Virus genome (UHGV): UHGV-1461890
Direction: 5' to 3' (one strand)
Source of the DNA: a virus
Length of the DNA: 41,432 nucleotides
Under the pieces are notes generated by a model. It did no database searches and was not told the DNA's origin. It saw nothing but the letters and a program-made list of their open reading frames with translations. The translations under genes were made by a program, and so were the position numbers. Numbering within the stretch: position 1 is the first letter of the stretch; the number at the start of each line of letters is the position of its first letter. Below are positions 9,958 to 10,290 of this stretch, piece by piece.

Positions 9958-9991
9958 GGGGGAGGGATAACTCCCTTCCCCTTCTCATTTT
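9958..9991 (+). terminator. rho-independent terminator after capsid gene
   Basis: GGGGGAGGGA-TAAC-TCCCTTCCCC stem-loop (one G-U pair) followed by TTCTCATTTT. Confidence 0.5.
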
Positions 9992-10005
9992 AAGGAGTGA
10001 AATAT

Positions 10006-10254
10006 ATGGCAAATAACACAGCCGCAAATAAACCCGAAGTGGTTAAAGAAAAGATAGTAAAAATCATTGTTCCTAAAACAAGGGAATTGCAAGATGATGT
10101 TTTTGTATCGGTGAATGACCGTACATGGCAGATTCAAAGAGGCGTTGAGGTAGAAGTTCCTGAATGTGTTGTTGAGGTATTAAAACACCAGACAGAAATG
10201 GAAAACATAGCTCTCGCATACGAAGCACAGGCCTCAAGTCCTAAAAATCATTAA
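10006..10254 (+). CDS. hypothetical small virion-associated protein
   Basis: Track ORF starts at GTG 9997; ATG at 10006 has AAGGAG SD 8 nt upstream; flanked by hairpin terminators on both sides. Confidence 0.4.
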   Translation: MANNTAANKPEVVKEKIVKIIVPKTRELQDDVFVSVNDRTWQIQRGVEVEVPECVVEVLKHQTEMENIALAYEAQASSPKNH

Positions 10255-10265
10255 GTAAAAAATTT

Positions 10266-10290
10266 GGGGAGTTCTGAAACTCCCCTTTTA
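10266..10290 (+). terminator. rho-independent terminator
   Basis: Perfect 8-bp stem GGGGAGTT-CTGA-AACTCCCC followed by TTTTA. Confidence 0.5.

Follow-up and report, generated by a model that had tools for sequence, protein, structure and literature searches.

An 82-codon gene lies directly behind the major capsid protein gene of this virus genome between two stem-loops that, judged from their counterparts in related loci, appear to be different kinds of element, with only the downstream one having the features of a canonical terminator. The small gene itself is real, is under purifying selection and belongs to a large uncharacterised protein family, that of phrog_15239. From the distribution of the stem-loops, joint expression with the capsid gene seems more likely for the small gene than a low-copy product. 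The window, by which we mean the whole stretch of DNA that was analyzed, is an entire contig of 41,432 bp and represents a podophage-like genome (~41 kb) of gut Clostridia.

The small gene in the late structural operon

The structural genes run in one direction, on the plus strand, and constitute the late structural operon (Table 1). The portal gene comes first, then those for Prp protease, scaffold and capsid, and then the small gene, the adaptor-like gene and the tail genes. Beyond position 12413 further structural genes follow, among them an ORF of 3,782 aa. The capsid gene ends with a TAA stop codon at 9947-9949, and by the capsid protein the nearest isolates are the Bacillus Pageviruses (38-39% identity) and the Paenibacillus larvae podophage API480 (37%).

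Table 1. Features of the late structural operon around the small gene.
Feature	Position	Strand	Evidence
P22-type portal	5482-7485	+	PF16510, E 1e-31
Prp-family cysteine protease	7498-7842	+	Pfam Peptidase_Prp, PF04327, E 1e-13
Scaffold-like protein	7898-8863	+	phrog_13908
Major capsid protein, 340 aa	8927-9949	+	phrog_1357, E 3.6e-92; Pfam Phage_capsid_3, Phage_capsid_4
Hairpin 1	9958-9981	+	10-bp G-run/C-run stem, 4-nt loop
Shine-Dalgarno AAGGAG of small gene	9992-9997	+	direct sequence reading
Small gene, 82 aa	10006-10254	+	phrog_15239, E 3.3e-11
Hairpin 2	10266-10285	+	8-bp stem, 4-nt loop, then UUUU 10286-10289
Next gene, 122 aa	10312-10680	+	phrog_12105, E 1e-44; SD GGAGG 10299-10303
573-aa protein	10692-12413	+	phrog_511, 'internal virion protein'

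The preliminary description of this DNA had proposed the small ORF as a gene, and the comparative data establish it as a genuine one. Its ATG codon follows the Shine-Dalgarno sequence with an 8-nt spacer and its TAA stop codon is located at 10252-10254. We found 540 homologues of similar length (E ≤ 1e-3, 90%-clustered database), and an exhaustive profile search at the same threshold (E ≤ 1e-3) returned 1,958 clusters at 50% identity. Methionine 1 and alanine 2 are invariant in 38 homologues, which supports the assigned start codon, and the match to the phrog_15239 HMM aligns residues 15-77 with positions 22-85 of the 96-position profile. Comparison with a 73% identical relative (L009) gave pN = 0.17 and pS = 0.57, and hence a dN/dS of ~0.18; this one pair was used because more distant pairs are synonymously saturated. 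The conserved core of the family reads (K)EKxVKIxIPxTxxxxxDVFVSVNxRTWxIxRGVEVEVPxxVAEVL, and an AlphaFold2 model built on a 38-sequence alignment (mean pLDDT 78) consists of a disordered N-terminal tail of 15 residues, four short strands and a C-terminal helix of 25 residues. Longer members of the family carry 40-90 additional N-terminal residues of coiled-coil or low-complexity character. With only a handful of exceptions, the related loci surveyed have the small gene directly 3' of a gene of the same capsid family.

Searches with the small protein against Pfam, NCBIfam and PDB sequences and profiles gave nothing meaningful. Neither a megablast search with positions 8900-10700 nor a tblastn search with the 82-aa protein found a match among 50,697 phage records. 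Divergent family members used as queries matched only unannotated faecal contigs, and a Foldseek search of BFVD yielded uncharacterised homologues only. The matches in genome collections (L093-L150) were nearly all in gut or rumen MAGs of Oscillospiraceae (many of them Faecousia), Clostridia and Eubacteriales, and many were located on contigs of 40-46 kb that resemble binned phage genomes. These MAG assignments suggest a host range, through binning alone.

Some features of the neighbouring genes were observed along the way. The gene for the Prp-family cysteine protease is placed between the portal and scaffold genes. The scaffold-like protein starts with MIHFIKPMHLNLQLFGE... and the capsid protein with MKNIFKINLQLFAE..., both with an L27-type NLQxF|A/G motif, and the capsid N-terminus (...INLQLFAE) resembles a Prp cleavage site. 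We take this motif to be the one cut by Prp, as in the Staphylococcus 80alpha/L27 system. Since both proteins begin with it, their sequences would imply Prp-dependent N-terminal trimming of both head proteins. No tRNA genes were detected with ARAGORN.

Stem-loops upstream and downstream of the small gene

Hairpin 1, GGGGGAGGGA-TAAC-TCCCTTCCCC, begins 8 nt past the stop codon of the capsid gene. Its stem includes one G.U and seven G-C pairs, and it has a minimum free energy of -19.7 kcal/mol (z = -2.64), with 2 of 200 dinucleotide shuffles folding equally well. Hairpin 2, GGGGAGTT-CTGA-AACTCCCC, begins 11 nt past the stop codon of the small gene, contains five G-C pairs and has a minimum free energy of -13.3 kcal/mol (z = -2.80), which was equalled by 1 of 200 shuffles. 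Both are G+C-rich stem-loops on the sense strand just 3' of a gene, as is expected of intrinsic terminators, and they have a common GGGGAG...CUCCCC core. The U-tract in the tail of hairpin 1, UUCUCAUUUU (9982-9991), is interrupted, whereas the tail of hairpin 2, UUUUAUCAAA, opens with an uninterrupted UUUU, and the shape of hairpin 2 is accordingly what one would predict for a canonical intrinsic terminator. A consensus terminator scan listed both hairpins, hairpin 2 on both strands owing to an A-tract on its 5' side. However, the scan returned 9 sites in 10 kb where 6.4 ± 2.4 were expected, so that a match by itself is weak evidence. A census of uninterrupted hairpins of -10 kcal/mol or lower over all 41.4 kb identified 16 on the plus strand, of which only about six are intergenic (at 3288, 9958, 10266, 27271, 31895 and 32014). 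Two of these flank the small gene, and the others are located after the gene that ends at 3289, after the giant ORF and at the end of the operon. Folding, scan and census thus agree on two hairpins that bracket the gene behind the capsid gene exactly where the preliminary description had placed them. An Rfam search found nothing at the gathering threshold and one sub-threshold chance match in the region, and no other conserved motif was found.

The remaining strong hairpins of the genome deserve a brief description. The 3,782-aa ORF (15917-27265) takes up 27% of the genome, and the hairpin directly 3' of it (27271-27304, 15 bp, -21.9 kcal/mol, no U-tract) is the strongest intergenic one of the operon. 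Two hairpins, at 31895-31927 and 32014-32055, lie between the rightward structural operon, the last gene of which ends at 31893, and a leftward gene at 32111-33607. The second of these has an AT-rich stem of 18 bp and is terminator-like on both strands, which suggests a bidirectional terminator where the two transcription units converge. A near-perfect 11-bp palindrome, TTGGTATACCA-nnnn-TGGTATACCAA (40616-40641), is located within the ORF at 40265-41014, scores as a hairpin on both strands and looks like an operator or protein-binding site. Finally, the pyrimidine tail of hairpin 1, CUUCUCAU, is complementary to the Shine-Dalgarno sequence AAGGAG of the small gene (window positions 9982-9997), and RNAfold pairs the two weakly, with a gain of ~3 kcal/mol, both here and in the relatives L009 and L010. 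In read-through RNA this pairing could mildly mask the ribosome-binding site, or it could be a coincidence.

To place the two hairpins in a wider context, we fetched 73 viral-contig loci from a profile-derived scan, 8 from a single-sequence scan and 6 by exact protein look-up, as well as 58 genome or MAG loci. In each locus the family member was identified with the HMM, and the closest ORF upstream with 150 aa or more had to be a capsid homologue. A hairpin was called present if the best uninterrupted hairpin within 60 nt past the respective stop codon reached -10 kcal/mol or lower, and the counts were limited to non-identical, assessable loci. Among 57 viral contigs, 35 had both hairpins, 5 only the upstream one, 12 only the downstream one and 5 neither; the corresponding numbers in an independent survey of 49 genome or MAG contigs were 10, 9, 12 and 18. 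In the pooled set of 106 loci, both hairpins were present in 45 (42%), only the upstream one in 14, only the downstream one in 24 and neither in 23 (22%), which amounts to a post-capsid hairpin in 59 loci (56%) and a hairpin after the small gene in 69 (65%). The background, determined from 4,835 other 63-nt windows of the same loci, was 8.0%.

The close relatives L009-L014 retain the complete order of capsid gene, hairpin, small gene, hairpin and 122-aa gene with stems of different sequence. More generally the stems differ between lineages (for instance GGGGGAGGG, GGGGGAGGGG, GCGGCGGGGG, GGCCTAGTGA and GGGTGGAGAG), the structure recurring and the sequence not. Hairpins with differing stems at the same position in so many loci, against a background of 8%, are more than chance would produce. 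The bracket is thus common and repeatedly maintained, but it is facultative, since 24 loci have the downstream hairpin alone and 23 have neither, and the absence of both from 22% of the loci indicates that it is not required for the function of the small gene. RNAalifold recovered weak covariation (only 5-7 consensus pairs), which is uninformative because the stems vary in length and are misaligned by MAFFT. An apparent preference for the sense strand deduced from G.U pairs turned out to be a selection artefact, as it was gone with strand-unbiased, Watson-Crick-only seeds (p = 0.39 and 0.19).

The loci with neither hairpin belong mostly to a lineage of high GC content, the three genes of which adjoin one another or come close to overlapping. 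In the genome and MAG loci of this lineage (L115-L127, GC 0.56-0.65) the ribosome-binding site of the small gene comes straight after the capsid stop codon, and the ATG of the next gene is found 5-8 nt past the stop codon of the small gene (TGACGCCATGAC...). Here tight packing would replace dosage control by hairpins.

The common core of the two hairpins could also be read as a target site, the small protein being an RNA-binding autoregulator or antiterminator that acts on the hairpins flanking its own gene. The sole observation in favour of this is the position of the gene beside two stem-loops that share this core. We regard the idea as highly improbable, because the stems vary widely between lineages (GGGGGAGGG, GCGGCGGGGG, GGCCTAGTGA) while the core of the protein is nearly invariant, because the gene occurs without hairpins in 22% of the loci, and because fold and profile searches found no RNA-binding fold or domain in the small protein.

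The two hairpins differ most clearly in what follows the stem. When stems were trimmed to the last G-C pair and T residues were counted in the following bases, at least three T in the first four nucleotides were found for the downstream hairpin in 26 of 33 unique relatives, but for the upstream hairpin in only 7 of 33 (Mann-Whitney p = 1.3e-5). Typical downstream tails are CCCC-UUUCUUGAA and UUUUUUCA, whereas many upstream hairpins end in AGAAGAAA, AGAAUAGG or AAUACACA. The tail of hairpin 1 in the present genome, UUCUCAUU, is among the more T-rich of the upstream class, yet it is interrupted. The upstream stems are also the more stable ones in the mean, with about -21 kcal/mol as compared with about -17 kcal/mol for the downstream stems. 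Where only one hairpin is present, it is more often the downstream one (24 versus 14 loci). The preliminary description had called both hairpins terminators. The part of this claim that stands is that both stem-loops are conserved and lie in the sense orientation; the part that does not is their equivalence. On this sequence signature hairpin 1 is more likely to be a leaky attenuator or a stabiliser of the mRNA 3' end.

If neither hairpin terminated transcription, both could serve as RNA-stability or processing elements, that is, as barriers to 3'-exonucleases or as RNase sites that split the long late transcript into segments of different half-life. Such a function would agree with the great stability (-17 to -30 kcal/mol) of hairpin 1 and most of its homologues, which lack a U-tract, and with a location straight after the gene for the most abundant product, as befits a 3' stabiliser. 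It is nonetheless unlikely to hold for both elements, because the downstream hairpin combines a full stem with a U-tract in 26 of 33 relatives, a terminator signature for which a pure stabiliser would have no need, and because neither an Rfam family nor another conserved motif was found.

Expression of the small gene

This arrangement can reasonably be read as one that grades expression through leaky termination. We propose that hairpin 2 and its UUUU would stop a fraction of the late plus-strand transcripts after a head-shell block of scaffold, capsid and small gene, so that the neck and tail genes would then be made from read-through RNA at a lower dosage. Hairpin 1 would act as a leaky attenuator, as a stem-loop that protects the 3' end, or as both, and in this way may raise the capsid message over all that lies downstream while still allowing expression of the small gene. 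With its own strong ribosome-binding site, the small gene would be expected to reach a level between that of the capsid protein and those of the neck and tail proteins. The loci with only a downstream hairpin and the lineages with abutting genes fit a canonical terminator that closes a head-shell block which includes the small gene, and the post-capsid stem-loop would then be an optional extra tier. Taken as a whole, with hairpin 2 as terminator or attenuator, hairpin 1 as a leaky or protective element and the small protein as a capsid-associated accessory, we give this model a somewhat better than even chance of being correct.

The preliminary description had the small gene expressed separately by read-through, its product being needed at lower copy number. 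In that case both hairpins would be terminators, the small gene would be reached by read-through only, and it would encode a low-copy decoration or head-tail joining protein. Both hairpins indeed score as terminator-like in this genome, both elements are annotated as terminators in the API480 record, the tail of hairpin 1 (UUCUCAUUUU) is relatively rich in T for its class, and the small gene sits between the capsid gene and an adaptor-like gene. However, the upstream hairpin has no U-tract in 26 of 33 relatives, and 24 of the 106 loci keep the downstream hairpin and have no upstream one, which would place the small gene together with the capsid gene on the high-expression side. The more frequent downstream position of a lone hairpin thus argues against a low-copy product. 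In addition, the small protein is unlike known decoration, adaptor or stopper folds, and decoration proteins are usually present in high rather than low copy number. We therefore consider low-copy expression behind two terminators rather unlikely, and the claim of a lower copy number was not sustained.

The small protein and its counterparts in known phages

The next gene downstream is the better candidate for an adaptor. It starts with an ATG at 10312, where the initial ORF list gave a TTG at 10264, and its homologues are 122-123 aa in length. We found 4,399 homologues of the 122-aa protein, and its AlphaFold2 model (pLDDT 84) is a four-helix structure for which the best Foldseek matches in the PDB were Sf6 gp7, P22 gp4 and other podophage adaptors, all of them weak (E 0.9-4). 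On the strength of this model the 122-aa protein is probably the head-to-tail adaptor and would be better suited to that role than the small protein, which suggests that the neck adaptor role is already filled. Profile comparison of the 122-aa protein with Pascal gp9 and API480 gp10 detected no homology.

For the small protein itself, neither a decoration nor a head-tail joining function, as had been put forward for it, found a counterpart in sequence or fold. No similarity of either kind was seen to the decoration or cement families tested (gpD-like, Soc, Hoc/Ig-like, Dec and epsilon15 gp10-like), and in place of the helical-bundle adaptor fold of P22 gp4, Sf6 gp7, HK97 gp6 and SPP1 gp15, the 82-aa model shows four beta-strands and one helix, without matches to adaptors. 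Most likely the small protein is a capsid-associated accessory, either a cement or decoration protein or a capsid-binding helper of assembly or packaging. We favour such a role because the protein tracks one capsid lineage through very different genomes, also of different size, as in Xanthomonas phage DES1 and the weaker case of BCD7_0099, and because in loci with hairpins its gene more often shares the capsid gene's side of the terminator. With ~2,000 clusters at 50% identity, the family has members in phages of Clostridia, Bacillus, Paenibacillus and Xanthomonas. It is a tentative and rather doubtful further thought that the family represents a new class of capsid-binding factor, either a cement protein of a new type or a gpFI-like packaging or assembly chaperone whose fold is unrelated, the dosage of which is set independently of that of the capsid protein by a stem-loop without a U-tract followed by a true terminator.

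Within the accessory role, a specific alternative is a non-virion, capsid-binding chaperone of DNA packaging or assembly, analogous to gpFI of phage lambda. Lambda Fi occupies the same place, with the capsid gene directly before it and the head-tail joining gene after it, and the combination of a small conserved globular unit with a variable, often long N-terminal extension of coiled-coil or low-complexity character would suit such a function. The member in Xanthomonas phage DES1 moreover has an N-terminal Rho_N/SAP-like motif, albeit below the cut-off (Pfam Rho_N, E 0.012). Against this stand profile comparisons with gpFI and the YqbF family, which gave probabilities below 1%, and the failure of the motif resemblance to YqbF to persist across YqbF homologues; a strictly gpFI-like function thus seems improbable to us. 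Homology to lambda gpFI was rejected on the basis of the profile comparison (probability <1%). Homology to YqbF was likewise rejected, since the profile comparison spoke against it and the RGV..VP resemblance does not extend through the YqbF family; the YqbF query sequence had been checked against 2hjq.

Among cultured phages, API480 (vB_PlaP_API480, MK533143) has the same order of portal, scaffold-like, capsid, stem-loop, ~85-aa gene, stem-loop, ~125-aa gene and large gene. Its GenBank record lists the major capsid protein gp8, a rho-independent terminator, gp9 (87 aa), a second rho-independent terminator, gp10 (126 aa) and gp11. The stems are unrelated in sequence to those of the window, both API480 hairpins have clear T-tracts, and gp9 is a marginal homologue of the small protein (hhalign probability 42%, E 2.6e-4). 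In an ESI-MS/MS analysis, 7 peptides covered 67.8% of API480 gp9 (Ribeiro et al. 2019, PMC6937236). Terminase, holins and DNA-binding proteins were identified in the same sample, a phage stock that had not been purified (PMC6937236), so that the detection demonstrates expression of gp9 rather than its residence in the virion. The same paper assigns no function to gp9 and does not discuss the arrangement (PMC6937236).

A clearer homologue is gp7 (115 aa) of the Bacillus megaterium Pagevirus Pascal (hhalign probability 83.5%, E 8e-6; phrog_15239 E 3e-4). In Pascal the capsid gene gp6 is followed by a canonical terminator, TAGGGGCG...CGCCCCTA-TTTTATTTT, and then by gp7. Unlike in the window, no hairpin follows gp7, the next annotated terminator comes only after two more small genes, and gp7 has a charged N-terminal extension of 45 residues. 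In phage DES1 the domain is part of a 217-aa protein encoded two genes past the capsid gene (phrog_15239 E 5.6e-5), and a tblastn search with this protein found one further phage only. BCD7_0099 is a weaker candidate homologue; a terminator lies upstream of it, behind a short ORF that is not annotated. In Streptomyces phage Kumquat a terminator directly follows the capsid gene, and the next gene is unrelated.

The layout described here is a textbook way for a phage to grade the dosage of its structural proteins and, being already annotated in the cultured phage API480, adds little in itself. More useful are the comparative data that separate the post-capsid hairpin from the hairpin after the small gene as different kinds of element. 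Further value lies in the very large uncharacterised family that follows one lineage of capsid proteins, with Pascal gp7 and API480 gp9 as cultured members. The gene order in lambda is E-Fi-Fii, and the small gene of the window is placed in the same way, immediately behind the capsid gene and ahead of the head-tail joining genes. Lambda gpFI and the small protein also have in common a small globular unit with a flexible or helical extension, but no sequence or profile similarity between the two is detectable. The classic case of a leaky intrinsic terminator directly after a capsid gene is T-phi of phage T7, which follows gene 10. Like the window, T7 has a stem-loop 3' of the capsid gene in a long late unit, with the tail genes expressed by read-through at a graded dosage. 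T7 differs from the window in that it employs a phage-encoded RNA polymerase, that the terminator is of the T7 class I type and that no second terminator encloses a small gene; in the window, by contrast, hairpin 1 is followed by a poor U-tract, and termination is predicted from sequence. Leaky terminators also grade late gene dosage in Pseudomonas phage LUZ7, for which T7 is cited as an example of the same principle (PMC9163698), and in SPP1 stem-loop terminators delimit the late gene clusters (PMC6316719).
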